Shown here: positions 1 to 28,171 of the stretch, piece by piece
How positions within the stretch are numbered: position 1 is the first letter of the stretch
Layout: every line of letters begins with the position of its first letter
IMG/VR virus record: IMGVR_UViG_3300020045_002143
Span: 1-28,746 of that record
Strand: one strand, 5' to 3'
DNA from: a virus
Lineage: Duplodnaviria; Caudoviricetes
Length of the DNA: 28,746 bases
The notes under the pieces: generated by a model
What the model saw: the letters and a program-made list of their open reading frames with translations, nothing else
Database searches by the model: none
Told to the model about the DNA's origin: nothing
Position numbers and translations under genes: made by a program

Positions 1-93
1 ACAGCTGTCAAGCTGATCGACCAGCTAGCGGCCGCGGGTGCTGTTGGGGCCTGTGATGCGCGGGGCGCGCGGGAAGTGCTGGTGGTGGCATGA
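1..93 (+). CDS. 3' end of a protein with an FtsK-gamma-like winged-helix C-terminus (partial)
   Basis: Frame 1 reads TAVKLIDQLAAAGAVGACDARGAREVLVVA*, resembling the FtsK gamma end (AARLIDQLE..G.VG..d...REVL). Its TGA overlaps the next ATG (ATGA at 90-93). Confidence 0.6.
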   Translation, partial: TAVKLIDQLAAAGAVGACDARGAREVLVVA

Positions 94-1013
94 GCGAAAA
101 CACCAAAATCGAGTGGTGCGATGCCACGGTGAACCACTGGGCCGGATGCACCGCTGTATCACCCGCGTGTGACAACTGCTATGCCAAAGCCATGGCCAAG
201 CGCCTTTGGGGTGTGGGCTGGGGGGCTGGTGTGCCACGGCACCGGTTTGCCAATGCAAACACCACATTGAAAGCTCTTGACCGCAAGGCCCAGCGATTGG
301 GTCAGCCACTGAAGGTTTTCCACAACTCGCTGTCTGACTTTTTCGACAATGATGTGTGGGTGGATATGCGTATCGTTGCCATGTGGGCGATGATGGAAAC
401 GAAAAGCCTGATTCACCTGCTGTTGACCAAGCGCATTGGTAATGCCAAAGACATGATTTTTGAGGCTCGCCGTGCTCTGCTCGCGCCGGGTGAGCTGTAC
501 AACCCTGCACCACTTCACAACGTCTGGATAGGTACCACGATATGCAACCAGGAGGAAGCCGACCGCGACATCGGCAAGCTGATAGCCGTGCCAGCCGCCA
601 AGCGGTTCCTCAGCTTGGAGCCGCTGCTGGGGCCGGTGGATCTGGAGCGCTGGCTTGAGCCTGCTGGCCTGGCTACCGATCTGGGCCTGAGCAATCCTGG
701 GATCGACTGGGTCATCGTTGGCGGCGAGTCCGGCCCCAACGCCCGCCCGATGCACCCGGATTGGGCGCGCAGCCTGCGTGATCAGTGCCAGGCGGCTGGA
801 GTTCCGTTTCTATTCAAACAGTGGGGTGAGTGGATCAGCACAGACCAAGAGCCACAGCCCTATGGAGGGCCGTTGTCTCGGTGGATGTGGGCTGATGGAT
901 CCGCGCTTTTGGCCGATGACGGGCAGCGCGGTATGCCACTTTTTTGCAAAGTCGGCAAGAAAGCCGCCGGCCGCCTGCTCGATGGCCGCACCTGGGATGG
1001 GGTGCCATCATGA
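90..1013 (+). CDS. Phage Gp37/Gp68 (DUF5131) family protein, radical-SAM-like three-Cys motif
   Basis: N-terminal TKIEWCDATVN..GCTAVSPACDNCYA, LLLTKR, FLSLEPLLGP, WVIVGGESG..ARPM, FKQWG and GRLLDGRTWD are typical of the family. Confidence 0.9.
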   Translation: MSENTKIEWCDATVNHWAGCTAVSPACDNCYAKAMAKRLWGVGWGAGVPRHRFANANTTLKALDRKAQRLGQPLKVFHNSLSDFFDNDVWVDMRIVAMWAMMETKSLIHLLLTKRIGNAKDMIFEARRALLAPGELYNPAPLHNVWIGTTICNQEEADRDIGKLIAVPAAKRFLSLEPLLGPVDLERWLEPAGLATDLGLSNPGIDWVIVGGESGPNARPMHPDWARSLRDQCQAAGVPFLFKQWGEWISTDQEPQPYGGPLSRWMWADGSALLADDGQRGMPLFCKVGKKAAGRLLDGRTWDGVPS

Positions 1014-1501
1014 GCCGCGGCCGCCCACCCCGCCAGCCACGCTGGCAGCCCACCGGCGACACCCTGACCCTTGCCCGGCACTTTGCCGCCAAGCCAGCCC
1101 GCCAGGACATGGACGCTGTGGTCAATGTCCTGCAGGCTGCATTCAACGCCCTGCGCAAAGGTACGGTCACCGAAATGCAATTCGGCGTGCTGAATGGCTG
1201 CATCGATGTGGCCCGCTTTGTCGAGCGCCAGGGCGTAGTCACCGGCCTGTCGCCCACCATCGAGCTGGCCGACACCGTGGTCAAGGCCATCCATGCACGG
1301 ATCTGCAAGCACGGCACCTGGGGCAGCACAGCCTTGTATGCCCATGAAATCAAGGCCATGAGCGAGTTTGTCACCCAGCACACCTTTCAGCTTCGCCAGC
1401 TTGGGCGGGCTGAATTTCTGCGGGCAGTCGCTGCGGCCAAGGGCTTCATCGGTGCCAGCGCCGTGATCGTCAACGCCGACCAGATGCAGGCCCTGTCATG
1501 A
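1010..1501 (+). CDS. Hypothetical phage protein
   Basis: ATGA overlaps at both ends (1010-1013, 1498-1501); start taken at MSRGR within ORF 944..1501. Confidence 0.7.
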   Translation: MSRGRPPRQPRWQPTGDTLTLARHFAAKPARQDMDAVVNVLQAAFNALRKGTVTEMQFGVLNGCIDVARFVERQGVVTGLSPTIELADTVVKAIHARICKHGTWGSTALYAHEIKAMSEFVTQHTFQLRQLGRAEFLRAVAAAKGFIGASAVIVNADQMQALS

Positions 1502-2019
1502 CCAAAAGCCGCCATATCACTACCCACACCGTGGCCAGCTTGCATGAGCGCTGCGATGACGAAGGCGACTGCTGGCTCTGGACGGGCTACATGGCCAACG
1601 GATCGCCCTACGTCAGCCACAGCGGCAAGATGGTCGCCGTCAGAAAACTGATGCTGGACCTGGTCGGAAAAAAGGTCCGACAAACTGCCCGCTACTTTGC
1701 CACCAGGTGCGGTAACGCGGACTGCATCCACCCAGACTGCATTGTCGCCCGCACTGATGCCGAGCACATGGCCGCCATGGTAAGCCACGTGCGCCACCAG
1801 CACCCGGTGCGCGTCAGCAAGCTGCAGGCAGCCGCCCGGGCACGGCCGGCATGCAAGCTCACCGAAGCCAAAGCCCAGGCCATCCGCACCGATGCGCGCA
1901 CCTGCAGCGCCATTGCCACAGACATGGGCATCAGCAAAGCGCTGGTGGCCAAGGTCAAGCGCAACGAATGCTGGCGGCCCACGTCAGCCACTCTTAACCC
2001 TTGGATTGGACTTCTATGA
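1498..2019 (+). CDS. Degenerate HNH-like (zinc-binding) protein with C-terminal HTH
   Basis: CWLWTG...CGNADCIHPDC layout of phage HNH proteins, plus KLTEAKAQAIR...IATDMGISKALVAKVKRNECW HTH-like tail. Confidence 0.6.
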   Translation: MTKSRHITTHTVASLHERCDDEGDCWLWTGYMANGSPYVSHSGKMVAVRKLMLDLVGKKVRQTARYFATRCGNADCIHPDCIVARTDAEHMAAMVSHVRHQHPVRVSKLQAAARARPACKLTEAKAQAIRTDARTCSAIATDMGISKALVAKVKRNECWRPTSATLNPWIGLL

Positions 2020-2444
2020 GCATGACCATTAATACCCCTTTCAAAATTCCATCATCCTGCAGCGCTGCCACCTGGAAATCCGACCGCTGGGGCATGCGCG
2101 AATCAGACCGTTGGCCCGAAGGATTCCCAAAGCCACGGACCTGCTCCTTCTGCGGCGGCGTGCATCCTGAAGACCTGATTGAGCTGATCAAAATGGGGTG
2201 GGAATTTGAGCCCAGCAGCAAGGGCTACAAATCCTATTGGCACCCGCCTGGAATGGCTGGGTATTTCACTGCGCTGGTGAAAGACTTTGTCGACGCATTT
2301 ATTGTTGACCGAATGACACCGGCGGCGGTGGACCCGGTGCCTCCGGTCAAACTTTACAGCGACCACTTGACACCCGATCTGATCGCCACCATCAATTCTT
2401 TGCTTTTGATCAACAGGGCGAAAGCCCCAGGGAGTGCTGCATGA
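2016..2444 (+). CDS. Hypothetical protein with CxxC motif
   Basis: ATGA overlaps on both sides; [11 protein letters not shown] motif. Confidence 0.65.
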
Positions 2445-3025
2445 GCACAATCCTCACCCGTTGCGGCCACGTCTTCAACCTCCTGGCGCCGGCACACTCG
2501 CGGATCGACATCGACACCATTGCCCACGCGCTGGCCCACATTTGCCGCTTCACGGGCCACACGTCGAGCTTTTACAGCGTGGCCCAGCACAGCGTCCTGG
2601 TCAGCCGCCTGTTGCCGCCCGAGCATGCCCTGGCCGGCTTGCTACATGACGCGGCCGAGGCCTACATCGGCGACGTGTCGAGCCCCTTGAAAGCGTTGCT
2701 GCCCGATTACCAGGCCATCGAGGCCAGTGTCGAGGCCGCGGTGCGCAACCGCTTCGGCCTCAGCGCCCTGCTGCCACCGGCCGTCAAGCTGGCCGATCTG
2801 TGCGCCCTGGCCACCGAGCAGCGCGACCTAATGCCGCCACACGACGCCACGCCGTGGGCCTGCCTCCAGGGCATCAGCCCGCACCCGGATCCTGTAGTTC
2901 CGCAAGAACCGTACATCGCCCGAAAGCTTTTTTTGGCGCGTTTTTATACGCTGTCGGCCGGCGTGGATAGGCGCCACTGGCGGCGGGCGGAGGGCAGCAA
3001 GCTGGTCGACTGGAGCGCGGCATGA
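2441..3025 (+). CDS. HD-domain phosphohydrolase (YfbR-like 5'-deoxynucleotidase family)
   Basis: [33 protein letters not shown] and VKLAD motifs. Confidence 0.88.
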
Positions 3026-3117
3026 GCGGCCTGGGCGTGCTGCTTGGGCTGATCGGCGCGGCTGGTGCCGGGCTGGTGATGGTGGCGGTTTGGGCTATTG
3101 CGAGGGGTGGGAAATGA
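3022..3117 (+). CDS. 31-aa single-TM microprotein (not in the ORF track)
   Basis: [31 protein letters not shown]; fills the gap exactly, with ATGA overlaps at 3022-3025 and 3114-3117. Confidence 0.65.
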
Positions 3118-3335
3118 ACACAGGTACTTACACGCGGGCCACCATGCAAGTCCCGACGCTTGAGGGAATAGTTGACGTAGTCGACGCGCTGAAGGCCTCA
3201 TGCCAGGCGGGCAAGTGGACGCTGCTGGCCCCCGATGGCCGGGTGTGGATGAACAGCGACCCGATGATTCTGTTCGCCGCGCTGGCCGCCGTGATGCAGG
3301 GCCAGGACTTGCGTTTTGATGGAGTGGCACGATGA
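3114..3335 (+). CDS. Hypothetical protein
   Basis: ATGA-coupled at both ends; start MNTGT. Confidence 0.65.
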   Translation: MNTGTYTRATMQVPTLEGIVDVVDALKASCQAGKWTLLAPDGRVWMNSDPMILFAALAAVMQGQDLRFDGVAR

Positions 3336-3595
3336 CCCCCTGGTACACCGACCAAGAAATCGACGACCTGTGCGCCGGGCTGGTCACCAACGCCGCTAAG
3401 ACCCGTCATTTGCGTAGCCTGGGCCTGACCGTCAGCCAAAAGCCCAACGGCCGCCCGCTGGTGATGCGTGGCCAGGCCGAGCGCGTGCTGTCCGGCCTGC
3501 AGCAAATCCAGTCCTCAGCCGCCGCTGACCAGCCCGCCCGGCCCAACCGCGCCGCCCTGATCGCCGCATTTGGCAGAAATTTGAAGGCGGCGTAA
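3332..3595 (+). CDS. DUF4224-type excisionase-like protein (recombination directionality factor)
   Basis: YTDQEIDDLCAG....AKTRHLRSLGL....KPNGRPLVMR and C-terminal PNRAAL; lies upstream of the integrase. Confidence 0.75.
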   Translation: MTPWYTDQEIDDLCAGLVTNAAKTRHLRSLGLTVSQKPNGRPLVMRGQAERVLSGLQQIQSSAAADQPARPNRAALIAAFGRNLKAA

Positions 3596-3597
3596 CC

Positions 3598-3876
3598 ATG
3601 CCAGATATTCAAATTCCAGGCGGTGTGATGCATGTCAGCGGAGATTTCAAGCCGGGTGATCAGGCGCCCACCGGCTATCTTGACTGGCATGAATGGGCAG
3701 AAGTGCAGCACAAGGCTGGATTGAGGCAAAAGGCCTGCGGCCGATGTGGAAAGTGGTTCTATCCGCAGCAGCTCAGCAACCGGGTAGACGTTTACACAGC
3801 ACGGACCAAGAAATGGGAACCTGTGACGGTGGAGTCTCCCGTTTGCAATGTGTGCAATAAAGCCAAAGAGGAATAA
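3598..3876 (+). CDS. Hypothetical protein with two CxxC pairs (zinc-ribbon-like)
   Basis: ACGRCGKW...VCNVC; fits between the excisionase-like gene and the integrase. Confidence 0.65.
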   Translation: MPDIQIPGGVMHVSGDFKPGDQAPTGYLDWHEWAEVQHKAGLRQKACGRCGKWFYPQQLSNRVDVYTARTKKWEPVTVESPVCNVCNKAKEE

Positions 3877-3877
3877 C

Positions 3878-4984
3878 ATGGCAACGATGGGTCGCAAGCG
3901 CAAATCCTCAGATACGGGGCTAGAGCCTCGTGTGTACGCCAAGCATGGCGCGTATTACTACGTCCACCGCGAAGGTAAGTGGGAGCGCTTGGGTACCGAC
4001 ATGGCCGAGGCCAATCAGAAGGCACGCCTTTTCAATGATCCAGATGGCGAATACGGCACCCTGGTCTATTGGCTCAAAATGTGGCTGGTGCACTGCCAGG
4101 CCAAGGTCGCGGCAGGCAAACTGGCCCAGCGTACCCTGGACGATTACACCGGCGCCGTCAAAGGCACCGACAAAAAGAACGGCGCCTTGAGCATCTTCTT
4201 TTCCCCGCCACTTACCCCGCTCGACCTCGATCCCGACATGGTGCAGGACTTTCTGGACACTATGGCCGAGCTGGGCCGCCCGGTTCCTGCCAACCGCGAG
4301 AAGGCTGCACTCAGCAGCTGCATCAGTTGGCTAATCCGGACAGGCAAGGTGCCAGGACTGAAGGTCAACCCTTGCCTGCGGGCCAGTGGCATCAAGCGCA
4401 ACCCCGAGGCCAAGCGCGACCGCTACGTCACCCACGAGGAATACCGAGCAGTCTGGGCCGTGGCGCAGACCAGCGTGAAGCTGATGATGGAGCTGACCTA
4501 TCGCACCCTGCAGCGCCCCGAGTCCGACATCATCACCTGGACCACCGGCGTGCTGCTGACCGAAGACGGCCAGCGCAAACTGCACTTCAGACAGGGCAAG
4601 ACCGGAAAGTGGATGAAGGTGCTACTGACCGCCGAGCTCGACGCGCTGATTCGCCAGGGTCTGGGCATTATCACCAAGCTGCACCAGCCCATCGTGCGCA
4701 CGCGAGTGGGCGAGGCCTACAGCTACGACGGCCTGAGCGCCATGCTCAAACGCAGCATTGGCAAAGTGAACGCCCAGCGCAAGAAGCTGGGGCTTCTGCC
4801 GATCCCAAGCTTTGGCTTCCGCGACCTGAAGGGCAAGGGCGCCACAGACATGTGGCTCGCCGGCATTCCTATCGAGCAAATTCAGCAGCTGTGTGGCCAC
4901 GAAGACAAGACTACAACCGAGATCTATGTCAAGCAGCGATGGCGGGAAACAGCCACCGCCAACCTGGTGGTGATGGGCGCATAA
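3878..4984 (+). CDS. int: Phage integrase (tyrosine recombinase)
   Basis: GAGGA RBS before ATG 3878; N-terminal arm-binding region (GRKRK...PRVYAKHGAYYYV); catalytic LQRPESD, QGKTG, FRDLKGK, CGH, EIY; adjacent to attP. Confidence 0.93.
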   Translation: MATMGRKRKSSDTGLEPRVYAKHGAYYYVHREGKWERLGTDMAEANQKARLFNDPDGEYGTLVYWLKMWLVHCQAKVAAGKLAQRTLDDYTGAVKGTDKKNGALSIFFSPPLTPLDLDPDMVQDFLDTMAELGRPVPANREKAALSSCISWLIRTGKVPGLKVNPCLRASGIKRNPEAKRDRYVTHEEYRAVWAVAQTSVKLMMELTYRTLQRPESDIITWTTGVLLTEDGQRKLHFRQGKTGKWMKVLLTAELDALIRQGLGIITKLHQPIVRTRVGEAYSYDGLSAMLKRSIGKVNAQRKKLGLLPIPSFGFRDLKGKGATDMWLAGIPIEQIQQLCGHEDKTTTEIYVKQRWRETATANLVVMGA

Positions 4985-4987
4985 ACC

Positions 4988-5008
4988 AAGGGCCGAAAGG
5001 CCCTTTTT
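4988..5008 (+). terminator. Rho-independent terminator after int
   Basis: AAGGGCC-GAAA-GGCCCTT stem followed by a T run. Confidence 0.75.
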
Positions 5009-5163
5009 GCTGCCTGCCGGATCTGTCCAATATCCAGTAGTTTGAGACCCAGCCAAACCATATTTCCCTAGCTAGACCCAAGTCTGAATTGCAGAAAATA
5101 TTAGACAGCTTATGGGCAAGAAGTGAGGATTCATGCGGCTTTGCGGGCGTTTTGGTGGCCCGC

Positions 5164-5208
5164 CTGTTAATCCGTAGGTCCCTGGTTCGAGCCCAGGTCG
5201 AGGAGCCA
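5164..5208 (+). mobile_element. attP core: 3' part of tRNA-Asn(GTT) from anticodon loop to CCA
   Basis: CTGTTAA-TCCGTAGGTC-CCTGGTTCGAGCCCAGG-TCGAGGAGCCA contains the anticodon loop, T arm and CCA. The 5' half is absent, and phage genes lie on both sides. Confidence 0.88.
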
Positions 5209-5230
5209 CTTACAAGGCTCATAGCCACTG

Positions 5231-5265
5231 AAAAGCCCACTATTAAATCGATAGTGGGCTTTTTT
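5231..5265 (+). terminator. Rho-independent terminator (possibly bidirectional) downstream of the tRNA fragment
   Basis: AAAAGCCCACTAT-TAAATCG-ATAGTGGGCTTTT perfect stem. Confidence 0.85.
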
Positions 5266-5435
5266 CATTGTTAGACGTTTTATTAGACACTGTCTAATAT
5301 CCAGTGGTTTTAGACTTTTTGGGTCTCACCGAAAACCGCTCTAAATGCCCCAAGTTGCAAGCAAGCGCCCTGCCCTTGCAACCACACCAGGCAGTTTGCA
5401 ACCATGCAACCTGCGCGATTCTGGCAAGCCTGTTT

Positions 5436-6525: not shown

Positions 6526-7049
6526 CAGCGCACCGGCCCCGACCCTTTGATTGTTTCAATCCCCTTGCCGATTTGGCGCAACCCGGCATAGGTCCACGGC
6601 AAAGCCAGCAGTAGCAGCAACACGTCGACGCTGGGGTTCTTCGTCGCAAAGACGTAGACCAGGGCGGCTATCAAGCTGACCCAGCTCTGTGCCGGCCTGG
6701 TGCGGCGCACAAAGGGGTCTTCGGCCACGTCGCCAGAGCGGATCGTCTTTTGCGTCTCGGCCTGCTCGGCCTGGGCATCGTCGAGCTGCTGCTTGGCCAT
6801 GATGCGGATGTGCTCGCGGATGCTGGCCTCATCTTGCCCCGCCAGCTCGCGCAGGCGCAGCACTGTGGCCGGGTCGGTCTGCAGCGCTTGCAGGGCCGCA
6901 CCCGGGTCGGTGGTTCCGGTGGCGCCGGAGACAAGAGAGATTCCGGCCGCTACCGCGCCCGGCACATTGCCGGTGAGCAGCGAACCCACCAGGGCTGCGC
7001 CGGTACCGGCATTGCTTTTGAGCCAGTCGCCAACTATGGTCCAGTCCAT
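6525..7049 (-). CDS. Holin (3TM/GTA-holin-like)
   Basis: Follows the endolysin; N-terminal hydrophobic segment, coiled coil, D.FVRRTRP motif, two C-terminal TMs, YAGLRQIGK. Confidence 0.75.
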   Translation of the reverse strand: MDWTIVGDWLKSNAGTGAALVGSLLTGNVPGAVAAGISLVSGATGTTDPGAALQALQTDPATVLRLRELAGQDEASIREHIRIMAKQQLDDAQAEQAETQKTIRSGDVAEDPFVRRTRPAQSWVSLIAALVYVFATKNPSVDVLLLLLALPWTYAGLRQIGKGIETIKGSGPVR

Positions 7050-17796: not shown

Positions 17797-18267
17797 TCAG
17801 GCGTTGAGGTTGATCTCGACCGTGGTCACACCGTTGCCCGCGGCCTTGGCGGCGTACCCTGCCAGCACGTTGGAGCCCACGGTGGTGGTCAGGCGGCTGT
17901 TGGCGTTGTCCCAGTACAGCAGGGCGCCTTGGGCGACCACGTCGGTGCTGAGTTTGGCGATGGTGAACACACCCTCAACCGCCACAGCGCCGGTGGCGCC
18001 ACTGGCAATGGCGGTCATGGCCACACCAACGCGGGCGCCGATCAGCAGCACCTGGCCGCTGGAGACGGCTGAGCCTGCAACGTAGTCGATCACGTCGCCA
18101 GACATCACGTATTTGGTGGTCATGCCTGCGGCACCGGCCATCGAGATGGCTGTGGCCATATCTGGCGACAGCAAGGTCGAGGCGTCAATGCCTGCTGCAT
18201 GGGCTGCCAGCCCAAGGCAAGCAATGGCCGCCACGGCCAAGAGGGGGAGAAAACGGAAGTGTTTCAT
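17797..18267 (-). CDS. DUF2190 capsid decoration/cement protein with a 48-aa hydrophobic N-terminal extension
   Basis: Core from MTTKYVMSGDVIDY (18123) with VSSGQV, GVA, EGVFTIAK, GALLYWD; AAGGA RBS precedes the upstream ATG 18267. Confidence 0.8.
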   Translation of the reverse strand: MKHFRFLPLLAVAAIACLGLAAHAAGIDASTLLSPDMATAISMAGAAGMTTKYVMSGDVIDYVAGSAVSSGQVLLIGARVGVAMTAIASGATGAVAVEGVFTIAKLSTDVVAQGALLYWDNANSRLTTTVGSNVLAGYAAKAAGNGVTTVEINLNA

Positions 18268-18307: not shown

Positions 18308-20389
18308 TTAAGAGCCGGTGGAGCGCACAGCGCCGCGGAAGTCGACACCGCCAATGGCGTAGTCCATGCGCACCTTCCAGCGCGCACCGTCCACGCTGAA
18401 GCCGTTTTCCATCTCCAGGTAGGGGGTGTCGATGCCGTCAAGGAAGGCCACTTCCAGCACCGGGGCTTGGGCCGGGTCGGCAAACATGAACCATGGCGTG
18501 CCGCTCAGGCGCGGGGTGCCGACGATGCTGCTCACCATGGCGGCGGCAATGTTGGCGCGCTGGAGTTTGTTGGCGGCGTCCGGGTCATAGGTGCTGTTGT
18601 TCACCACCTTGGCCTGGCCGGCGATGGCGTCCGGGCCCAGCCACACGGCGGGGCTCAGGGCCAGGAAGTCGTTACCGCTCACGTCCTTCTGCGCGCTGAG
18701 AACCACACGGGCGGCCTCGAACGCGGTCACGGTGGGGGCGCCGGTGGAGACGTTGGCGTGGCTGGCATGGAACAGCGTTACACCGTCAGACAGCGTGGGG
18801 CCCATGCCGCTGTTGAGCGCCAGGGTGGCATACACATCGGCCTCAACTGTGCGTTTGGCGGAGCGGCCCAGGCTGGAGGCCAGGCCGGTGAGCGCGCCCA
18901 TGTCGTCGTTGATGATGGCCTCGCGGCTGATGTTGATGATGTTGCCCTTGGTGCCTGCGGTGAGGGTTGCCTTTTCGCCATCGGGGATGGTTTTGTTGCG
19001 GAATTCGCCCAGCTCGGTTTTGCTCTCCAGGTTGCTCAGTGAGCCGACGCGGTAGCGGTTGTGGGCGCGGAAGTCGCTGACGGTGCCACGGGCGCAAAAA
19101 ATCGTCCAGGTATCAGCCTGCAGGGCGTAGGCACCTTGCAGGGTTTTGTGCATGACGTTTTCCAGCAGCACAGGGAAATCGCTGGTGCTCTGGGTGAAGG
19201 CGGCGGCGACGATGGCGCGCTGGTCCATGCCGTCGGAGCGGATACCGGCGCGGGCCAGGCACATCTCGGCCAGGTTGAGTAGCTTGCGGCCGCGATAGGG
19301 GTTGGAGCCGTCGGCGCGCACGGGGCCGGACTTGTCAACGGTGATGTTGGCCTTGGCCAGCACGGCCTGGATCATGGCGTCGCGGTGTTTGTCGCCTTCG
19401 TCTTTGACCGTGTTGACCGTGATGTGGCCGGCCACCGGGGTGGCACCGGCGCCCAGGTGGGCCAGCAGTTTCAGGCCAGCGGCGTCGACCGTGCAGGCGG
19501 CGTCTGCCTGGCAGGCGGCGCGCAAGGCGGCCACGCCATCGCGCTCGGCAAATTTGGCAAAGCTGGCGTGGATGGCTTCGCGGCGAGTGTTGTCGGCGGC
19601 CAGCGCGGCTTGCACAGCAGCAGACACGTCGGCAGGGGCAGCGGCATCAGGGGGTGTGCCAGCCGCCGTGGGGGTGACTTGTTGGGTCATGGTGGGAGCT
19701 TTCAAGGTTGGCGTGGCGGCTGCCACGGAGGGGCGGGAAAATCGTGCAGACGCCTGCACGCGCAGGGCGGCAGAGGCGGCTACGGGCAAAGCGGTGGTGA
19801 CCGCGTCGACAAAGCCCATGGCCAGGGCCTCTTGGGCGGTGTAGTAGTGGTCGGTGCCATCGGTCAACAGGGCCAGCATGTCGGCAACCGGCTGGCCGGT
19901 TTTGGCGGCGTAGCTGGTGGACAGGGCGGCGCTGTACTGGTCCAGCATGTCAGCCGTGTCGCGCAGTTTGGCGCTGTTGCCCTCGGCATAGGTCCATGGG
20001 GCATGCACCATAAAAATGGCGTTCTCGGCCATCTCGACCTTGTCACCGGCCATGGCGATCAGGCTGGCGATGCTCATGGCCACACCGTCCACCACGGTGG
20101 TGACGGTGGCCGCGTGGCGCTTGATGGCGTTGTAGATGGCCACACCATCGGGCACGCTGCCGCCGTAGGAGTTGATGCGGATGGTGATGGCCTGCGCGGT
20201 GAGGGCGGCCAGGTCTTTGACGAACTGGGCGGCGCTGACTGTCTCGGCCCACCAGCTCTCGCCGATGTCGCCGTAAATGAAGATTTCAGCCTCGGCCACC
20301 GGGGTGCCGCCAGCGGCTGCAGCGGCTGCGGCCAGGGGGGACTTTTGGCGGATGCTGTACCAAGTTTGGGGTGTGGCGGCTTGTGTCAT
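18308..20389 (-). CDS. ClpP-type prohead protease fused to major capsid protein
   Basis: IFIYGDIG, INSYGGSV, GVAMSIAS (Ser), MVHAPW (His), TAQEAL..GFVD; then Ala-rich scaffold and capsid (STSDFP.LL, SREAIINDD, RMDYAIG..DFRG). Confidence 0.92.
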   Translation of the reverse strand: MTQAATPQTWYSIRQKSPLAAAAAAAGGTPVAEAEIFIYGDIGESWWAETVSAAQFVKDLAALTAQAITIRINSYGGSVPDGVAIYNAIKRHAATVTTVVDGVAMSIASLIAMAGDKVEMAENAIFMVHAPWTYAEGNSAKLRDTADMLDQYSAALSTSYAAKTGQPVADMLALLTDGTDHYYTAQEALAMGFVDAVTTALPVAASAALRVQASARFSRPSVAAATPTLKAPTMTQQVTPTAAGTPPDAAAPADVSAAVQAALAADNTRREAIHASFAKFAERDGVAALRAACQADAACTVDAAGLKLLAHLGAGATPVAGHITVNTVKDEGDKHRDAMIQAVLAKANITVDKSGPVRADGSNPYRGRKLLNLAEMCLARAGIRSDGMDQRAIVAAAFTQSTSDFPVLLENVMHKTLQGAYALQADTWTIFCARGTVSDFRAHNRYRVGSLSNLESKTELGEFRNKTIPDGEKATLTAGTKGNIINISREAIINDDMGALTGLASSLGRSAKRTVEADVYATLALNSGMGPTLSDGVTLFHASHANVSTGAPTVTAFEAARVVLSAQKDVSGNDFLALSPAVWLGPDAIAGQAKVVNNSTYDPDAANKLQRANIAAAMVSSIVGTPRLSGTPWFMFADPAQAPVLEVAFLDGIDTPYLEMENGFSVDGARWKVRMDYAIGGVDFRGAVRSTGS

Positions 20390-20464: not shown

Positions 20465-21385
20465 TCAAACAAGCGTCAAAGTCTTCCATTGGCCATCACT
20501 TAGGCCTCTGTCATCGTGGTACATATCGGTCATAGCCTGGTGCTTGTGGCCTAAAAGCACCATGGTATTGATGCCTTGCGCGCGGTACAGGCGCTCTGAA
20601 AGCGAGCGGCATTCGTGCAGCGATGTCGGGGCACCGGATTTTGGCGGTGCAATGGATGCTTCGCGGGCTTCTTCAAATCGCGCAGATAGACTGGCATCGC
20701 CGGGGCGCTTGCCGGTCGACTTGCGCAGCAGGTATTCATCGCCCACCGCGTAATCCCGGCAGGACTCGATCACGTCGCCAAGGGTGAGCCCGAGGGCGTC
20801 GAGGCGCAGGGCCAGAGGGAGCGCCAACTTCGCCCCGGTCTTTGCTTGCTCAATGTGAAGGTGGTCATCCCACACGTCAGCAAATCGCATCTTGACGAGA
20901 TCAGAGCGGCGCTGGCCGGTGACCAGGGCCAGCACCATCATGCGGCTGACCCAGCCGGGCATGTGTGCGGCGGCATGGCCGTGAATGGCCGTCCACTGCT
21001 CCAGGGTCAGGCGATTGCGCGCCACTGTGACACGCTGCGCCCGCACCTGGTCGGCCGGGTTGCGGTCCACCCAGCCATAGGTCAGCGCACCGCTGAAGAT
21101 TGACTTGGCCTCGATCAGCACGCGCTTGGCCAGAGGCGGGTGCTCTTTGTGCACTCGACCAATGAAGGCTGACACGTCGTGCGGCCGGATGCTTGAGATG
21201 ATCCTGTCGCGCCCCAGGCCCCGAAGCACATGGGCCATCGAACACCTCCGGTTGGCCTTGGTCTTGTCGGTGATCGGCAGGCCAGCGATGATCTGGTCGT
21301 AGACGCCTGACCATTGCCCCAGCGTGCGGTAGCGGGGCCTTACGGCGCCCACTGTCCGCGAGATGAGGAACGAGGTCAGGGACAT
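20465..21385 (-). CDS. Second tyrosine recombinase, lambda-Int-like, lacking the N-terminal arm-binding domain
   Basis: VTGQRRSD (R), QAKTG (K), LHECRSLSERLY (HxxR), LLGHK (H), MYHDDRG (Y); only 306 aa. Confidence 0.9.
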   Translation of the reverse strand: MSLTSFLISRTVGAVRPRYRTLGQWSGVYDQIIAGLPITDKTKANRRCSMAHVLRGLGRDRIISSIRPHDVSAFIGRVHKEHPPLAKRVLIEAKSIFSGALTYGWVDRNPADQVRAQRVTVARNRLTLEQWTAIHGHAAAHMPGWVSRMMVLALVTGQRRSDLVKMRFADVWDDHLHIEQAKTGAKLALPLALRLDALGLTLGDVIESCRDYAVGDEYLLRKSTGKRPGDASLSARFEEAREASIAPPKSGAPTSLHECRSLSERLYRAQGINTMVLLGHKHQAMTDMYHDDRGLSDGQWKTLTLV

Positions 21386-21396
21386 GAAACGGGCGT

Positions 21397-21422
21397 GTGA
21401 TGAAAGTATTAGATTTACCCGA
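21397..21422. repeat. Putative recombination site A
   Basis: gtgatgaaagtattagatttacccga; 20/26 identical to site B; contains the stop codon of 21415-21672. Confidence 0.65.
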
Positions 21423-21672
21423 GAGCCTTACCACCAAAGCGCATGGACACCCAGTCGCCAGCAGCCTGCCCAATAACGACTGCGGCGACTACAAACCAGT
21501 CGCCATCCATCACGCCGACGACACCGCCAGACAGCACCAGAAGGCGCACAAGGTTGGCCGCAGCGTTGAGTAAGATCGTTGCCCATTGCTTGTCTGCCGC
21601 AATGGCTTGCACTGCTGATGTGCGTAGGACAGCGTGGGCAAACTGCCCCAGGAAGATCAGAAAAATAGTCAT
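21415..21672 (-). CDS. 85-aa three-TM membrane protein (DUF5698-like pattern), putative cassette 2
   Basis: Three hydrophobic segments; no evident SD; bounded by sites B and A. Confidence 0.65.
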   Translation of the reverse strand: MTIFLIFLGQFAHAVLRTSAVQAIAADKQWATILLNAAANLVRLLVLSGGVVGVMDGDWFVVAAVVIGQAAGDWVSMRFGGKALG

Positions 21673-21673
21673 G

Positions 21674-21699
21674 GTGCTGAGATCGTTAGATTTACACGA
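21674..21699. repeat. Putative recombination site B
   Basis: gtgctgagatcgttagatttacacga; contains the stop codon of 21692-23617. Confidence 0.65.
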
Positions 21700-23617
21700 A
21701 CTTGTCGGCGGTCAGTGTTGCCGCGCCCAGTCTGTAGCCAACAGAGTTCCCGTGCGTTCCGTCAATGGTTGCGTAGTATGCGGACCCGTTGACCGCCCAC
21801 TTACTGGTTTCCGTTGGGTAACTATCCTCCACCGCAGCGGACGGGTCGAAGTACCCAGTAATATCCAACAGGGGATGCAGCGACCGAATGGCATCGTTGA
21901 CATAGTGGCGGCGGGACGTTGGACCGCCGTAACCACCACCCGACGAAGGCGTCTGATTTACCGCAGTAGCCCAGTTATCAGTTGAAGCAGCATCGGGGGT
22001 TGCTGTCATCGCAATCATGTTGACGTTCGGCAGTATGGCGCGAATCTGTTGATTCACGTTTGCCATCTGCACCAACACCTGCGCTGCGCCGCGAACGGTT
22101 GAATCAACAATTGGCTGCAAGTAGGCCCAAACGCAGGTTCCATCAACTATGCCGCCGCTCGTACTTGCTGGTCCGGTTCCAGATGCCGCAGAAGTTCCCG
22201 CGACTACGCATACATAAATGTTTGAATTTGCCTGTTTTGTATCCCACTTTGCGTAAGCCGTTGAAATGGCCCAGCTTCCATAGGAAATACCGGCCTGCAT
22301 GTCGTTATGCACATTGGCATTGATGACGTGTGTCGGGTTGGCAAGCTGGAGCAGCGCCCGGCGATAAGCCCAATTTGACGGGGTGATCAGGTACTTATTG
22401 CCATCAGACCCGCGCCCAAGGCCGCCGCCGCTGTAGCCAAGGTTCTCCCATATGCCGCGCTCGATGAAGCCGCGGTTACCCAGCGCGGAGCCAACGCCAT
22501 CGCCCTCGGAGCCCGAACCGCTGCCGCCTTCTCCTACACCGTAGCTCAATGAGTCACCGACAAACCAGATGAACGGGTCTCCTGAGTCGGTTTCGATCAG
22601 CAGCATGATCGGCGTGAAGTAGTTGCTGTTGCCGCCCTGAGTTGCCGGGGCTGCAGTGATGGAAGTGGCAGACTTTGCTGTATCAAGAGCAATTTGAGAC
22701 TGCGCTACAGTGGTGCCGTTCAACGATGCGTAGCCCACGTAGCGCTGCAAGAAGTTGCTGGACGAGCGGGTGTAGGGAATGCGACCCGTAATTGGTGTTC
22801 CCGCTGTCGCTTCTTCGACCGTAGTCCACAGCCCAAAGAACTGCTCCGCTTCAACATAGCTTCCGAGGTCGAGTACATCGCTAATCAGGTAGCCGTTCGC
22901 AGGCGGCGATGCTTGCCGATACTGGGCGACCTCGCTCGATCCAAACTTGAACATCTTTCGAGGCGACAGGCCCGTTGTGGCGTTCTGGTAAACCTGTTCA
23001 AAACCCACTTGGAAGTTGTAGTCGTTGGTGAAATTGGTGTCCACGATTGGAGTCCCAGCGAGTGGCTGGAAGCATTGCAGGACAGCCCGAACACGCCGAA
23101 ACCGGGTGTTTGAATAGTGCCGGGTACGGTGCAGCATGGAGTAAGCCGAGCCGCCTCCAAACCCTTGCACGTCCACGGACATGCCTTGGTTGATGCCGCG
23201 CCACGTAAGCGCAACGGCATCGACGTTTCGGCCAGCTACCTGGGTTGCAATCCTCCCGGTGACAAGGTTAGTTCCTGCATCAACCATGCCCGGCTGCGGG
23301 CTGAGTAAAAGGCTACCGGTGGAGCTGGGGTTTGCGGCCACCTCAGACGCCAATCCAGCCAGGCGGCCGATGCCAAAAACAGTCGTGAATTTTTTGGTGG
23401 TGTTGTTCCAATACACTTTGTCACCCACAGCCCATGCCTCCGCGCTGGTCTTGGCAACATAAAACTCGCCTTGGGTGATGATGTCGGTTTGCGCGCCAGC
23501 CTTGCAATCAGCCGTGGCCAGACCAAACAGGCTGCCCACGAGGACGCCCGCTCCTTGCAGCAGGTCATACGGCGCGAGAACATGGATGATGTTGCCTTCT
23601 TGCTTGTAATTTCTCAT
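21692..23617 (-). CDS. DUF2190 decoration domain fused to an SGNH/GDSL hydrolase with an inserted CBM-like module
   Basis: aa 1-~106 DUF2190 (MRNYKQEGNII...GEFYVAK..AEAWAVGDKVYWN); SGNH blocks FVGDSLSYG, GRGSDG, VHND, DGTH; insert WAISTAY...YVCVVAGTS...DGTCVW. Confidence 0.8.
   Translation of the reverse strand: MRNYKQEGNIIHVLAPYDLLQGAGVLVGSLFGLATADCKAGAQTDIITQGEFYVAKTSAEAWAVGDKVYWNNTTKKFTTVFGIGRLAGLASEVAANPSSTGSLLLSPQPGMVDAGTNLVTGRIATQVAGRNVDAVALTWRGINQGMSVDVQGFGGGSAYSMLHRTRHYSNTRFRRVRAVLQCFQPLAGTPIVDTNFTNDYNFQVGFEQVYQNATTGLSPRKMFKFGSSEVAQYRQASPPANGYLISDVLDLGSYVEAEQFFGLWTTVEEATAGTPITGRIPYTRSSSNFLQRYVGYASLNGTTVAQSQIALDTAKSATSITAAPATQGGNSNYFTPIMLLIETDSGDPFIWFVGDSLSYGVGEGGSGSGSEGDGVGSALGNRGFIERGIWENLGYSGGGLGRGSDGNKYLITPSNWAYRRALLQLANPTHVINANVHNDMQAGISYGSWAISTAYAKWDTKQANSNIYVCVVAGTSAASGTGPASTSGGIVDGTCVWAYLQPIVDSTVRGAAQVLVQMANVNQQIRAILPNVNMIAMTATPDAASTDNWATAVNQTPSSGGGYGGPTSRRHYVNDAIRSLHPLLDITGYFDPSAAVEDSYPTETSKWAVNGSAYYATIDGTHGNSVGYRLGAATLTADKFV
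23256..23282. repeat. Putative recombination site C, inside the DUF2190-fusion gene at the domain junction
   Basis: ccggtgacaaggttagttcctgcatca shares GnTGAnAnnnTTAGnT with sites A and B; falls at about codons 112-121. Confidence 0.5.
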
Positions 23618-23626
23618 TTCATGCTT

Positions 23627-25240
23627 TCATTTGACAGGGGTGAATTGGCTGGCCAGGGCGGCATCGTCGCCTTGCGTCGGGGTCTTTGGGCCTGCTGCTG
23701 CAGTCTGGGCGGCCACAGCGTTGGCGGCGGTGTTGTCGTTAGCGGCGTCGCTGCTCAAAATCAGCTCGGCGCGGGCGGCTTCTTTGCGCCACTGGATGAT
23801 TTGCTCCAGCACGTCGCGCGGGTTGCGCCCGCCTTTGCGGATGGCTTCGACCTCGCTCATGAAACCGGCTTTGGTGAGCACCACCAGGGCCTGGGCCTCT
23901 TTCATGGGGTCGATCCAAGGCATGGCCTGGGCGACAAACAGCGCATCGTTTTCGGTGCCTGGCATCACGTCGGGCGGGGTTTTGACCACGCCGGAGAGGT
24001 GGGCGGCTTGCACAAAGCCGTCCCACACGGGCTTGACCCACATGCCGGTGAAGGCGTCGGTCAAGGTGGCATAGTTGATCCACTGCTCGACCAGTTCCTG
24101 GCGCTGGGCGGAATAAGTGCCGTTGTAGTCGCGGGCAATACTGCTGTAGCTGGCCCCTACACCGGCGGCGGTGGCGCGTAATTGGCCCTGGCGGAAGGTG
24201 ACGACGTTGGGGTTTGGGCGGTTGCTGTCAATCAGGCCAATCTCTTCACCCACCTGCAGTCCGTCGATGATCATGCCGGGGGTCAGGCGCAGGTCGCGGC
24301 CCAGGGGGTTGCCGTCAGAGTCGCGTTGGCTGACGGGAACGCTGGCGGGGTCGTAGCCGTCGGGGCTGTTTTTCTTGACGTAGGCGGTAAGCGCGGCGGC
24401 CACTTTGGCGGCGATGCGCTCACTGTCTTCATAGTCTTTGATGTCCTCAAGCCGGGCGATGATGCTGGCAAATTCGGTGATGCCGCGCATCTGGCCAATG
24501 CGGTCGCGCAGGGCCACGTGGATGACGCGGTCGGCACTGATGCGCTTGAGGTCTTGGGTGCTCAGGCTGATGGCGCTGGCCCCGTCAAGCGGGTTGCCGC
24601 GGTAGACGTGGTATGCAATGGGGCGGCCCCAGGCGTTGCGCTCGATGCCCTGGCGGATGCGCTCGCCCTGATCGAAGCCCATGGGGCAGAGGTCGGCCTC
24701 AAACAGCTCCAGGCTATAGGGCACGCGGCTGGCGTGGGTGAGGCCGGGGGTGAGGCCGATCAGCTCTTGGGCAAAGGATTCCCCGTCCCGGATCCAGGTG
24801 CTGACGGTGAGGCGCTGCATGGCGGCGTCGGTGTGCAGGCCGGTGACTTCGGGGGCGGCGCGCCATTCGCGGTGGGCATGGCGCAGGGCGGCGGCGTACT
24901 CTTCGTGGATGCTGCCATCTTTGCGGCGGGGCTGGGGCTCGATGCCGATGCCGCTGGGGCCAACAATGTTGTTGGTCATGGTGCGGATGATGCCGCGGCC
25001 AATATCGTTGTTGCGCTGGATGTGGCGCGCCTGGGCCATGAGGGCGCCCGCGCCTTGCTGGACGATCTGGTTTGGCCCCAAGCGGTCGCGGTAGAACTTG
25101 CGGCTGTTGCTGGGGCTGGCGGCCTCATGCGCGGCGTAGGCGCGGATTTTGTCGTAGGCGTTGCGGGCGCCCAGGCGGCGCAGGCCTGCGGCGGGGGAGA
25201 TGTAGCCGACCAGGCGGTCGACGATGTTGAGGTCGCGCAT
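23627..25240 (-). CDS. Portal protein, lambda family
   Basis: IVGPSGI, RDGESF, RQGIERNAWGRPIAYH, GQMRG, YSAQRQEL, PWIDPMKE. Confidence 0.93.
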   Translation of the reverse strand: MRDLNIVDRLVGYISPAAGLRRLGARNAYDKIRAYAAHEAASPSNSRKFYRDRLGPNQIVQQGAGALMAQARHIQRNNDIGRGIIRTMTNNIVGPSGIGIEPQPRRKDGSIHEEYAAALRHAHREWRAAPEVTGLHTDAAMQRLTVSTWIRDGESFAQELIGLTPGLTHASRVPYSLELFEADLCPMGFDQGERIRQGIERNAWGRPIAYHVYRGNPLDGASAISLSTQDLKRISADRVIHVALRDRIGQMRGITEFASIIARLEDIKDYEDSERIAAKVAAALTAYVKKNSPDGYDPASVPVSQRDSDGNPLGRDLRLTPGMIIDGLQVGEEIGLIDSNRPNPNVVTFRQGQLRATAAGVGASYSSIARDYNGTYSAQRQELVEQWINYATLTDAFTGMWVKPVWDGFVQAAHLSGVVKTPPDVMPGTENDALFVAQAMPWIDPMKEAQALVVLTKAGFMSEVEAIRKGGRNPRDVLEQIIQWRKEAARAELILSSDAANDNTAANAVAAQTAAAGPKTPTQGDDAALASQFTPVK

Positions 25241-25256
25241 GGTGGGTGTGAGTCGG

Positions 25257-25502
25257 TCAGTTGAAGCGGGCGCTGGTGTAGGCCATGCCGGCAAAAGTGG
25301 GCTGGCCAGCGGCAGCGGCGCTGAGTTGGTTGACGGTGCGCTGCCACTGGGCGATGCCTTTTTGCACCAGGGCCAAATCCGTCTGACGGTCGGTGCGGTC
25401 GGCGCCAGATCCGCTGACGCGAATCTCTTGAGCCTCAAGGATGCGTGATTCGGCGGCCTGGTATTCGGCGAGTTTGGCTTGGGCTTGAGCTAGGGTGGTC
25501 AT
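25257..25502 (-). CDS. Head completion protein (gpW-like)
   Basis: MTTLAQAQAKLAEYQAAESRIL...DLALVQKGIAQW; small gene just before the portal. Confidence 0.75.
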   Translation of the reverse strand: MTTLAQAQAKLAEYQAAESRILEAQEIRVSGSGADRTDRQTDLALVQKGIAQWQRTVNQLSAAAAGQPTFAGMAYTSARFN

Positions 25503-26182: not shown

Positions 26183-28171
26183 TTAAAGGCGGCTGCTCCA
26201 GCCGGCCGGTGCAAAAGGGCTGGGGGCAAAGGGAGCTGGGGTGGCCGATGGCGCCGGGCGACGTGCAGGCGACGGCGTGGCTGGCTGGGTGGGGCTGGCG
26301 GCGCCAGGTGCAGACGTGTGTACGGGAGCCGATTGAGCATAGACACCATCGTGCTGCTGCATAAGCATTTGCTCTCGGCGATCCCAGTCCGCTTTGGTGT
26401 GCCGATGAAGCCGCAGCTCAGGATGGTGGGCGGCGGCGTAGGCATACACCCAGGTATCCAGCGGCTCATTGCGCGAGCCCCGTTTGTTGACAAAGCGGTT
26501 TTTGGCGGGGTCGTAGGTTTCTGACACCAGGCCTGGAAAGTACTCAAGCGGTAGCTGGTCTGAAAAATGCGTGGTGCGCACGTCTGCACTCTTATCTGCA
26601 TCCGTGCTCAGGCGGCTATAGAGCCAGTGCTTCACGCCCACCGTTCCAACGTGGTAAATCGTGACGCCTTTTTTGTCGGTTTTTCCGCGATGTGTCACAT
26701 CCTGCAGCTTGCCTTTGGACAGCACCGGGGCGTTATTGGGGATGGCACCAAACACCACCATAGGCCGGCGCACGCGGCGGGCGCGCACAAAGGATTTCAC
26801 GTCTTCTGTGCGGTGACCACCGGCATCATTGGCCATGGCTTCAACCCGCAGCACCGCGCCGCTGGCATGCAGAATGGGCGTATTGAGCAGTTCGGTCAGC
26901 GACCCCCACACGGCATCATCAGCCGGGTCGCCAGGCAGTTCCACATAGTCCAGCACCCAGAACGCCATGCCACGGCCCCAGCCCACCAGCTGCACGGCCA
27001 GACGGTTGTCTTGCGTGTCGATGCCTGCGGTGATGCAAAGCACGCCGTGCGGCGCAGTGCGCAGCTGGTAGGCCTCGGCCCGGTCGGCAATGGCGTTGTG
27101 CTTGACGGCACGCATGGCCGCGTCTTCCCAGGGTTCTGCCAGGCGATCATTGACAAAGGTTTTGAGTCGCCCGGGCTCGGCTTGCACGTCGCGCCAGGTG
27201 TCAACCAGATCCACCCAGCGCGGCCCCAGGCCAAACTGGTAATACAGGCAGTTGATGTGGTAGCCACGAATGCGAGCGCCGGGGTTGTCTGGCACCCACT
27301 GGCCGCTGGCAATCATGGCCGTCTTATGGTGCTCATCGATGTCGGCGCCACATTCCTGGCACACGTACCAGACCCGCTTGCCATCAAGCGTCCAGCGCAG
27401 GCCTGCCCACTGCAGGTGCTGCATGTGGCCGCAGTGCGGGCATGGCACGTGGTAGCGGCGCTGGTCGGACTTATTCCACAACTGTTCAATGCGGCTCAAA
27501 CCCTTGATCTGGGGTGTGCTGATGTAGAGGCTTTTGCTGGTGCTGGGAAAGGCGCTGGTGCGACCCTTCAGCATTTCAAGCGGGTCATCACCGCCGTGCA
27601 AGTTGTTGGCGAATTCGTCGACCTCATCCACGATCAATGTGCGCACCGTGGTGGACTTCAGTCGGCTTGGGCTGCCGGCGTGCTCCATGTACAGCTGGCC
27701 GCCGGCAAAATCTTTGAAGGTTTTGGTATTGGAGCTGTCGCGGCTGGCCACGCTGGTGAGCGCCCGCTTGACGGCGGCGGTGTCGTCGATCATGGGGTTG
27801 AGCTTTTGCGAGACCCACTTGTTCATGCTGACTTCACCAGGCAGGCAGACCATGACCGGGCCGGGGTCGTGGTCCATGCAATAGCCCAGGGCGTTGGCAG
27901 CCACTTCGCTTTTTCCAAACTGGATGGGGAACATGAGCACCACCTCACGCACGGGGCTGCGCAGGCTCAGGCAGTCCATGGGTTCCTTGAGCGGCGGGTT
28001 GTTGGCGGTGACCCAGTCGCCCGTGATGCTGCTGCCCTTACTGCTGAGTTTGCGGTTGCTGTCAGCCCACTGGCTGACGGTGAGCGGCTTGCGCGGTGCC
28101 AGAGCACGCGCCAGGGCGCGAAATCCGAAAACGTACGGATTGGCGTAGGGCGGCGCGGCGACGGTGTCCAT
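26183..28171 (-). CDS. Terminase large subunit (lambda GpA family)
   Basis: IQFGKSE Walker A, LIVDEVD Walker B, ISTP, VPCPHCG..CQECG, GIDTQD, RNEPLD. Confidence 0.95.
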   Translation of the reverse strand: MDTVAAPPYANPYVFGFRALARALAPRKPLTVSQWADSNRKLSSKGSSITGDWVTANNPPLKEPMDCLSLRSPVREVVLMFPIQFGKSEVAANALGYCMDHDPGPVMVCLPGEVSMNKWVSQKLNPMIDDTAAVKRALTSVASRDSSNTKTFKDFAGGQLYMEHAGSPSRLKSTTVRTLIVDEVDEFANNLHGGDDPLEMLKGRTSAFPSTSKSLYISTPQIKGLSRIEQLWNKSDQRRYHVPCPHCGHMQHLQWAGLRWTLDGKRVWYVCQECGADIDEHHKTAMIASGQWVPDNPGARIRGYHINCLYYQFGLGPRWVDLVDTWRDVQAEPGRLKTFVNDRLAEPWEDAAMRAVKHNAIADRAEAYQLRTAPHGVLCITAGIDTQDNRLAVQLVGWGRGMAFWVLDYVELPGDPADDAVWGSLTELLNTPILHASGAVLRVEAMANDAGGHRTEDVKSFVRARRVRRPMVVFGAIPNNAPVLSKGKLQDVTHRGKTDKKGVTIYHVGTVGVKHWLYSRLSTDADKSADVRTTHFSDQLPLEYFPGLVSETYDPAKNRFVNKRGSRNEPLDTWVYAYAAAHHPELRLHRHTKADWDRREQMLMQQHDGVYAQSAPVHTSAPGAASPTQPATPSPARRPAPSATPAPFAPSPFAPAGWSSRL

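Follow-up and report, generated by a model that had tools for sequence, protein, structure and literature searches.

The window analysed here is the whole of a viral record from IMG/VR (IMGVR_UViG_3300020045_002143; 28,746 bp, completeness estimated at 57%), and our subject is a three-gene module on its minus strand that carries candidate sites for a tyrosine recombinase. The module consists of a 641-aa fusion open reading frame (ORF; 21692-23617), a small ORF of 85 aa termed orf85 (21415-21672) and the gene for a 306-aa tyrosine recombinase, int306 (20465-21385). It is preceded by the gene for a lambda-family portal protein (23627-25438; Pfam PF05136, E 4.5e-92), with 9 nt between the portal stop codon and the start of the fusion gene, and is followed by a fusion gene for a ClpP-type prohead protease and major capsid protein (18308-20389; PF00574 and PF25209), all on the same strand. 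This gene order had been proposed in an initial annotation of the DNA and was confirmed by the ORFs and Pfam. The presence of the portal gene upstream and the protease-capsid gene downstream indicates that the module interrupts the head operon. The G+C content of its three genes is 0.51-0.61 as compared with 0.62-0.70 in the flanks.

Pfam, homologues and the sequence itself divide the 641-aa protein into a DUF2190 anchor, a linker and an SGNH-type esterase payload. The DUF2190 (Phage_cement_2) domain occupies residues 6-102 (23312-23602; PF09956, E 1.6e-18) and scores 67.4 bits against a curated cut-off of 24; it is the predicted means of attaching the enzyme to the capsid. The payload, a probable SGNH/GDSL-like esterase module of ~515 aa, occupies the unit from site C to site B (21692-23244), two of the three sites described below. 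Pfam gave no match in this C-terminal part; GDSLSYG and DGTHGN motifs are visible in the translation, and PF13472 or PF00657 is present in homologues at 32-56% identity. Homologues at 44-74% identity match the 641-aa protein only from residue ~139 to the end and have different N-termini, and one protein (P0041) has an N-terminal DUF2190 domain 63% identical to that of the window joined to a different GDSL domain.

Two classes of site were found in this phage, sharing a 10-7-10 arm-core-arm layout and inverted arms (~TCTAATCCCC and GGGGATTAGA) and differing in their 7-bp cores. Sites B and A belong to type II, which has the core TCWKCAC and overlaps stop codons. Site B (21663-21691) is complete, with a left arm ATCTAACGATC (21681-21691), a core TCAGCAC (21674-21680) and a right arm CATGACTATTT (21663-21673); the fusion ORF ends at a double stop (TAA ATC TAA) located in the left arm and 5' flank of the site, and the ATG of orf85 lies inside the right arm. 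Site A (21397-21414) comprises a left arm ATCTAATACTT (21404-21414) and a core TCATCAC (21397-21403); its right, recombinase-proximal side is not arm-like, and int306 starts 12 nt further on. The initial annotation had marked out A (21397-21422) and B (21674-21699) as copies of one element in which both upstream ORFs end at the same position. This held good, as the two are the sole matches to the 26-nt pattern in the window (none expected in 100 shuffles) and the ORFs do end at equal positions within them. Scored with a matrix derived from 12 sites in other loci, none from the window, B reached 20.9 bits and A 19.1, against 10.1 for the next best position in the window.

The type II element recurs well beyond this phage. 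Among int306 relatives, which were gathered from viral, genome and metagenome collections, a motif close to TAAnnCTAATCCCCTC[A/T][G/T]CAC lies between the stop codon of a variable upstream ORF and the start of the int gene. An exact-pattern scan of IMG/VR for the type II 16-mer CTAATCCCCTCWKCAC returned an estimated ~130 stretches, of which 120 loci were fetched, compared with 11 stretches for the reversed control. Across 111 distinct type II flanks, the positions left free by the pattern are far from random, the left flank reading aWWWT and the right flank R-A-W-G-A-T-Y-A-n-A (A in 79, G in 74, A in 68 and T in 64 flanks), and the first base 3' of the core is a purine in 83 of the 111. The right side repeats the left arm TCTAATCCCC in inverted, degenerate form, and the two arms come into exact register only when the spacer is 7 bp (4.26 matches of 10 at offset 0 versus 1.8-2.6 at 14 other offsets). 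As judged from these alignments, the 10-7-10 layout around an asymmetric TCWKCAC core is that of a simple tyrosine-recombinase site. The claim that the sites lack attC-like hairpins was upheld by DNA folds of 19 sites on both strands, which gave z values of -2.1 to +1.7 and no common structure.

Site C (23245-23273) lies in frame in the linker behind the DUF2190 domain, where it encodes TNLVTGRI, and is composed of a left arm AACTAACCTTG (23263-23273), a core TCACCGG (23256-23262) and a right arm GAGGATTGCAA (23245-23255). It had been put forward as a third site that shares part of the element in A and B. Site C is real and has the arms of these sites but is not equivalent to them, since its core is TCACCGG and theirs are TCAGCAC and TCATCAC, and for this reason no excision junctions joining C to B or to A are expected. 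On the type II matrix it scores -5.8 bits (rank 261 of 57,456) because it belongs to a second class, type I; on a type I matrix from 56 other loci it scores 26.1 bits and ranks first of 57,424 positions, ahead of a next best of 3.5. Its linker DNA aligns with that of L076, L107 and L125, three of the loci in our collection, and the L076 site reads ACTAACCCCC, TCACCGG and GGGGATTGAT for left arm, core and right arm. The type I consensus is aactAATCCtg, TCACCGG, GGgGATTgaat in the same order, and that of type II is TCTAATCCCC, TCWKCAC, RAWGATYA. The proposal that A, B and C belong to conserved site families was borne out, with the motif found both upstream of recombinase homologues and in viral loci.

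The word TCACCGG occurs 323 times in the loci against ~128 expected and its arm scores are bimodal, with 61 words matching the arms at 11 or more of 22 positions. Every one of these is on the strand of the type II site. Fifty-five distinct type I sites have a type II site downstream at a median spacing of 1.5 kb, and 42 of these belong to a single ORF, read in the phase ACC GGN, whose stop is at that type II site. All strong site pairs are direct (79 loci), as are A, B and C, for which the core-to-core distances of 1582 bp (C-B) and 277 bp (B-A) were confirmed. In L128 (oriented), two type I sites (2039 and 3227) precede one type II site (3516), and the second, at 283 bp from the type II site, may be a remnant or mark a very small module.

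The reading frame through the type I site provides evidence on the level at which this element is constrained. A search by peptide only, which avoids selection on DNA, retrieved 27 distinct [ND]P[LVF]TG.I linkers. The linker Thr is encoded by ACC in 26 of these (background 19%), Gly by GGG in 25 (background 19%) and Ile by ATT in 25 (background 46%), while CCG, with a background of 31%, is used for Pro in none. Such fixed codons indicate that the constraint acts on the DNA and not on the peptide motif alone. A common linker, ...x(V/L)TGxI, stands straight behind the cement domain in four DUF2190 fusions, and the free cement proteins stop short of it.

We also examined which genes accompany the sites. 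An ORF of at least 100 codons stops within the site in 71 of the 120 type II loci. Upstream ORFs were scanned with Pfam in 53 of 66 cases, the 13 partial ones from 616-nt loci being excluded, and 27 of the 53 had a match: 17 to GDSL/SGNH, two to SASA, two to GH5, two to beta-helix domains and one each to GH43, a polysaccharide lyase, a polysaccharide deacetylase and DUF2190 alone (L107); the upstream ORF of L125 combines DUF2190 with GDSL. Most of the carbohydrate esterase and hydrolase genes associated with type II sites bear a type I site 60-400 nt into the ORF. The ORFs downstream of the sites (45 of 82 scanned) are ordinary phage genes, encoding for example FII, DUF4054 and DUF2213 proteins, portals and lysozymes, with two of int306 type. 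A constant DUF2190 anchor, as the initial annotation had envisaged, was not observed. DUF2190 anchors occur in only four fusions (the window, P0041, L107 and L125), and the N-termini are mostly short and unrelated, with a median of 64 codons upstream of the type I site. The view of the C-B segment as a swappable unit read in frame with an N-terminal anchor is sustained by the 42 of 55 type I sites given above and by five pairs of phages in which it has been replaced.

In these five pairs of related phages, homologous flanks enclose unrelated payloads and homology breaks at both sites, so that a segment is replaced with both flanks kept. The first 2003 bp shared by L103 and L134 (95.3% identity) stop with the final base of the type I core; no similarity is detectable over the next ~1.4 kb, and 3518 bp at 92% then start at the type II left arm. 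Payloads without similarity are likewise enclosed by 1595 bp at 97.7% and 77 bp at 100% in L111/L123 and by 386 bp at 96.9% and 124 bp at 99.2% in L077/L079, and unrelated payloads lie between flanks of 83-87% identity in L082/L114 and L114/L137. L089 and L106 have nothing in common but the two sites, and the homology of the window with L076 is limited to the stretch between both sites (67% nucleotide identity over 1518 bp). Reading frames stay open across the replaced payloads. The initial annotation had pictured integron-style insertion and excision of cassettes: variable payloads do switch at the sites, but two like-with-like crossovers are the likelier route.

One-sided breaks were also detected. 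L023 and L026 are 100% identical over 1524 bp, the whole of the upstream gene, up to the last base of ...CTCAGCAC (...CAC), beyond which they diverge completely into two different int genes; L028 and L029 break at the type II site in a similar manner. L024 and L025, which come from one metagenome, both end 132 bp into the gene common to L023 and L026, and L023 and L024 differ by one base in 4350, located inside the type II core. Further one-sided breaks occur at type II sites in L070/L088, L138/L190, L122/L172 and L171/L182 and at type I sites in L085/L131 and L082/L101. At the resolution of BLAST, the breaks fall 0 to 17 nt from the core.

The second unit of the array is orf85, a small hydrophobic protein from a family of 17 (53-100% identity). 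Homology between the window and L077 runs exactly from the orf85 ATG (21672) to the last base of site A (21397), a 276-bp unit, and orf85 has 100% amino acid but 89% nucleotide identity with its L077 counterpart (3294-3548), which implies strong purifying selection on the protein. In L077 an SGNH-like gene comes first, then orf85 with a type II site on either side, then DUF2213 and the cement and capsid genes; in L079 another upstream gene is joined to the orf85 unit in the way seen in L077 and the window. These three contexts with equal ends establish, as had been suggested, that orf85 and site A form a separate small cassette. L029 has a second array, of two direct sites, before its int gene. 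Arrays of units that each end in a 3' site are thus seen as B-orf85-A-int in the window, before int in L029 and without int in L077.

The recombinase int306 contains core-binding and catalytic domains only (PF22022 and PF00589, the latter above its cut-off), and residues R159, K182, H257, R260, H280 and Y289 are invariant in seven of seven aligned relatives. Its best named relatives (35-43% identity) are the lambda-family Ints of HK022 and mEp235 and the ZF40, Kp4865-4 and PPompW integrases. These alignments begin at int306 residue 1 (ZF40) or at residue 21 or later, that with the 357-aa HK022 Int at residue 21; by its length, Pfam and the HK022 alignment, int306 is without an N-terminal arm-binding domain. 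An NCBIfam scan found no family at E <= 0.001, TIGR02249 included, in keeping with the earlier view that the enzyme is lambda-Int-like and not IntI. The int306 family comprises 900 clusters at E <= 1e-40, of which the best 120 are all 286-320 aa long; sources are named for a few members, among them Rhodoferax sp. BLA1, Denitromonas iodatirespirans, Azonexus and Dechloromonas. By one fixed criterion, a type II arm and core lie within 130 nt upstream of the start codon in 15 of 26 distinct family loci. The 15 comprise 12 of the 13 loci at 58% identity or more (the exception, L005, has a diverged arm) and three weaker loci. Truncated int genes abut the type II core in L088 (2361-2543) and L199 (315-410), starting from residue 245 or 274 and retaining the last 61 and 32 residues; the L088 join is at the codons for H-E-C-R, where the window int reads CTGCAC/GAATGC. 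These joins look like deletions to a pseudo-site, CAC/GA.

Several smaller observations were made around the int genes and their sites. A decayed copy of int306 with a frameshift is found in L043 (7001-7901). In L023 (1548-1610) and in L024, a hydrophobic, conserved ORF of 20-21 residues (MIYLILYLVVLGWCWSMVAG / MTHPPPLYLLLCLWCWALVAG) separates the type II site from int, and in L030 (~6850-6915) it stands just ahead of the site. A third core, TCGCGCG, is joined to a left arm TCTAATCCCCC upstream of distant ints (37-50% identity) in L038, L041 and L047, and in L047 the sequence that comes next, GGGGATCAAC, is similar to a right arm; TCGCGCG may define a further heterospecific class.

The sequences themselves establish the site architecture, the association with this cargo, the keeping of frame and the breaks at cores. 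We favour the explanation that the payload is bracketed by sites C and B and orf85 by B and A, and that the armless int306 is the likely enzyme of exchange between phage genomes. Recombinase protomers would bind the arms common to both classes, and strand exchange would require matching cores, so that sites would pair within their own class and not across the two. One crossover at each site between two co-resident genomes (from a co-infecting phage, a prophage or a circular intermediate) would together replace the payload in frame behind the recipient's own anchor. Units flanked by type II sites, such as orf85, could be inserted and excised in the manner of integron cassettes. Phages without the recombinase would rely on an enzyme supplied in trans, and int306 may act in cis or in trans. 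A broader proposition, on which we consider the arguments evenly balanced, is that of a natural cassette-exchange network in which an armless lambda-Int-like family, acting on at least two incompatible core classes of one 10-7-10 site, enables many unrelated phages of Betaproteobacteria to swap the catalytic modules of polysaccharide esterases and hydrolases displayed on the virion, in frame and independently of homology; recombinase-less lytic phages would be served in trans, and the linker NPxTGGI would be largely a by-product of the DNA site.

A number of findings weigh against exchange by int306. Seven of ten long site-bearing records are without a tyrosine recombinase, six of the seven being at least 92% complete; the L077 record (91% complete) likewise has none, and similarity to int306 is present in only six of the 120 motif-seeded loci. 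The enzyme had been taken to act on these sites, and it does adjoin them, but its role is read from that position; its catalytic part in exchange is one that we infer, because most complete site-bearing phage genomes encode no recombinase. The cores of A and B differ at one position (TCATCAC versus TCAGCAC), recombinase-proximal sites, including A, have no recognisable right arm, and the reciprocal half-site of core and right arm was not found downstream of int beyond background (nine hits downstream versus ten on control strands). No site was found at the left, portal-side edge of the fusion gene. Finally, the comparative data come from metagenome assemblies throughout. An assembly chimera is an unlikely cause of the breaks, since several pairs derive from different samples and their flanks rejoin one backbone.

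The conserved elements of ~30 bp could also be used by homologous recombination, and the best-surviving competitor, although we consider it unlikely, holds that they are linkers for general homologous or annealing recombination, comparable to module boundaries of the Botstein type, and that int306 is an unrelated passenger. This would accommodate the lack of a tyrosine recombinase in most of the complete phage genomes with sites. At 25-35 bp the elements are long enough for phage annealing proteins, and at BLAST resolution homology breaks anywhere in the conserved element. However, homologous recombination has no use for in-register inverted arms around an asymmetric 7-bp core, which a tyrosine recombinase needs. 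It is also at odds with the placing of int306 relatives directly on a type II half-site (12 of 13 close relatives, 15 of 26 overall), with the truncated ints joined to the core at the CAC/GA pseudo-site and with the location of the sole L023/L024 difference inside the core.

Less likely again is that the sites are site-specific but served by an enzyme from the host or another mobile element, of which int306 is a captured or occasional copy. Such a source would fit with the recombinase missing from most site-bearing phages and with recombinase-proximal sites lacking a right arm. It is opposed by the absence of any other recombinase family from the 45 immediate downstream ORFs scanned, two of which are of int306 type, and by the large size of the int306 family with its 900 clusters. 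In addition, the 16-mer and int306 each occur in one of 401 sampled Burkholderiales genomes, the same metagenome-assembled genome, in which the 16-mer lies beside the int gene of L001; no matching chromosomal site was found in the other 400 genomes, a sample outside which the true host possibly lies.

The window encodes a second, ordinary integrase of 378 aa on the plus strand (3848-4984), followed by a terminator-like hairpin, a tRNA 3'-end-like fragment (~5150-5210) and TTAGAC repeats (~5060-5320), with no full tRNA found by ARAGORN. This region (3848-5320) is probably the real int-attP module of the phage, and the presence of an ordinary integrase makes int306 an extra recombinase; int306 as the only integrase is ruled out. 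The motif was also rejected as a tRNA 3' end or attP core, as it misfits a T-loop, ARAGORN finds no tRNA in the window and the sole tRNA-like fragment is beside the other integrase. It is very improbable, and already largely refuted, that int306 and site A are a second attP-int module with the enzyme gene as a lysogenic-conversion gene beside attP, like gtr or oac in P22-like phages. The lambda-Int-like character of int306, a site that abuts the int start as many attP do and a cargo that acts on polysaccharides all speak for it. Against this, the window already has the 378-aa integrase and tRNA-like fragment, and the L010 record also has a second integrase; int306 has no arm-binding domain, and the site is in none of the 400 other Burkholderiales genomes. 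Sites are also carried by complete recombinase-less phages with terminal repeats, and in-frame type I sites and two-sided payload replacements are left unexplained. A regulatory role as promoter, operator or translational coupling element, with the position at mosaic boundaries incidental, has an equally slight probability: type II sites do overlap the stop codon, often with the next start in the right arm and a purine after the core, but type I sites are internal to ORFs and have fixed codons, folding predicts no stable structure, homology breaks at sites in at least 11 independent pairs and no reason is offered for a recombinase gene behind a half-site.

Exchange by int306 at two site classes bears comparison with several known systems. 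As in integrons, a tyrosine recombinase gene lies by an array of promoterless units that each have a 3' site, often on the stop codon; units recur elsewhere (orf85 with site A), and enzyme-less loci resemble integrase-less attC clusters. In contrast to integrons, the enzyme is lambda-Int-like without a match to integron-integrase models, and sites are short, double-stranded and of 10-7-10 form, not folded hairpins. The int306 gene is co-oriented with and downstream of the cassettes, 12 nt past site A, whereas an integron integrase is divergent with attI and a promoter between. A heterospecific site class inside the ORF makes the unit a protein module and not a gene, and the setting is that of phage structural operons. 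Shufflons of the R64 type use Rci and sfx sites in pilV, with a 7-bp core and one well-conserved arm, to invert DNA between inverted sites in one replicon. They resemble the present system in having an in-frame tyrosine-recombinase site in a surface-protein gene with a constant N-terminus and alternative C-terminal segments. The initial annotation was right to set shufflons aside, as all paired sites are direct, and alternatives are here exchanged between genomes and not stored in one.

Engineered recombinase-mediated cassette exchange (RMCE) employs heterospecific lox or FRT sites with equal arms and incompatible spacers, so that Cre or Flp replaces a segment without excision. Here too, sites with the same arms and different spacers flank a segment, and the comparative footprints have exactly the shape of RMCE; the engineered exchange differs in being a laboratory design, and we know of no natural counterpart. 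In Mu, P1 and related phages, the serine invertases Gin, Cin and Min act on inverted sites to select between two stored alternatives. These phages likewise rely on site-specific recombination inside a virion gene to alter the C-terminal, receptor-facing end of its product, but the present system has a tyrosine-type enzyme, direct sites and an open pool of payloads. Tailspike and depolymerase domains are exchanged behind conserved N-terminal anchors by homologous recombination. The arrangement of anchor, linker and exchangeable glycan-active domain is similar; the differences are that both boundaries here have a recombinase-type DNA site with fixed codons and that the 3' boundary is outside the ORF. 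The system looks, from sequence comparison, like neither an integron nor a shufflon but a natural cassette exchange between heterospecific sites. The initial annotation knew of no system with this layout, and no description of it was found in the literature searched, motif strings included, with subscription-only literature outside this coverage. The nearest paper concerns classical integron parts in phages (PMC9892861), and the other matches were to unrelated primers.

The likely consequence of such exchange is fast re-assortment of glycan specificities among the esterases and hydrolases displayed on virions. How phage receptor and glycan domains re-assort freely, unrelated genomes included, is a long-standing question, usually answered by rare homologous or illegitimate recombination with subsequent selection. 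If the recombinase is active, heterospecific-site cassette exchange would have its first counterpart in nature, and the system would be a new route to change in phage host range and glycan specificity and would provide a compact and directional tool for swapping protein modules in frame. The type I site would also be an example of a DNA site that imposes a conserved peptide linker, and the DUF2190 fusions suggest that capsids can carry exchangeable enzymes.

The remaining head genes of the window are on the minus strand and comprise the large terminase gene (26183-28171), a small gpW-like ORF between this and the portal gene, a free-standing DUF2190 cement protein of 156 aa (17797-18267; PF09956, E 2.4e-24) in its usual slot behind the capsid gene and, after it, an FII-like head-tail protein. 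The free cement protein opens with a signal-peptide-like stretch (MKHFRFLPLLAVAAIACLGLAAHA), which is unusual for a capsid protein, and has its cement domain at residues 56-153. In L004 (1-2240), the gpW-like and portal genes occupy one strand and the SGNH cargo, int and protease-capsid genes the other, and no site was found at the junction; this strand switch is either an inversion or an assembly artefact. L107 (oriented, ~20-3510) has two DUF2190-like stretches (362-727 and 860-1114) after the capsid gene and before FII, and a type I site is located at 1218. An 878-aa DUF2190 fusion has the second of these stretches as its anchor, and this layout indicates that a fusion can adjoin the cement gene in the usual slot.

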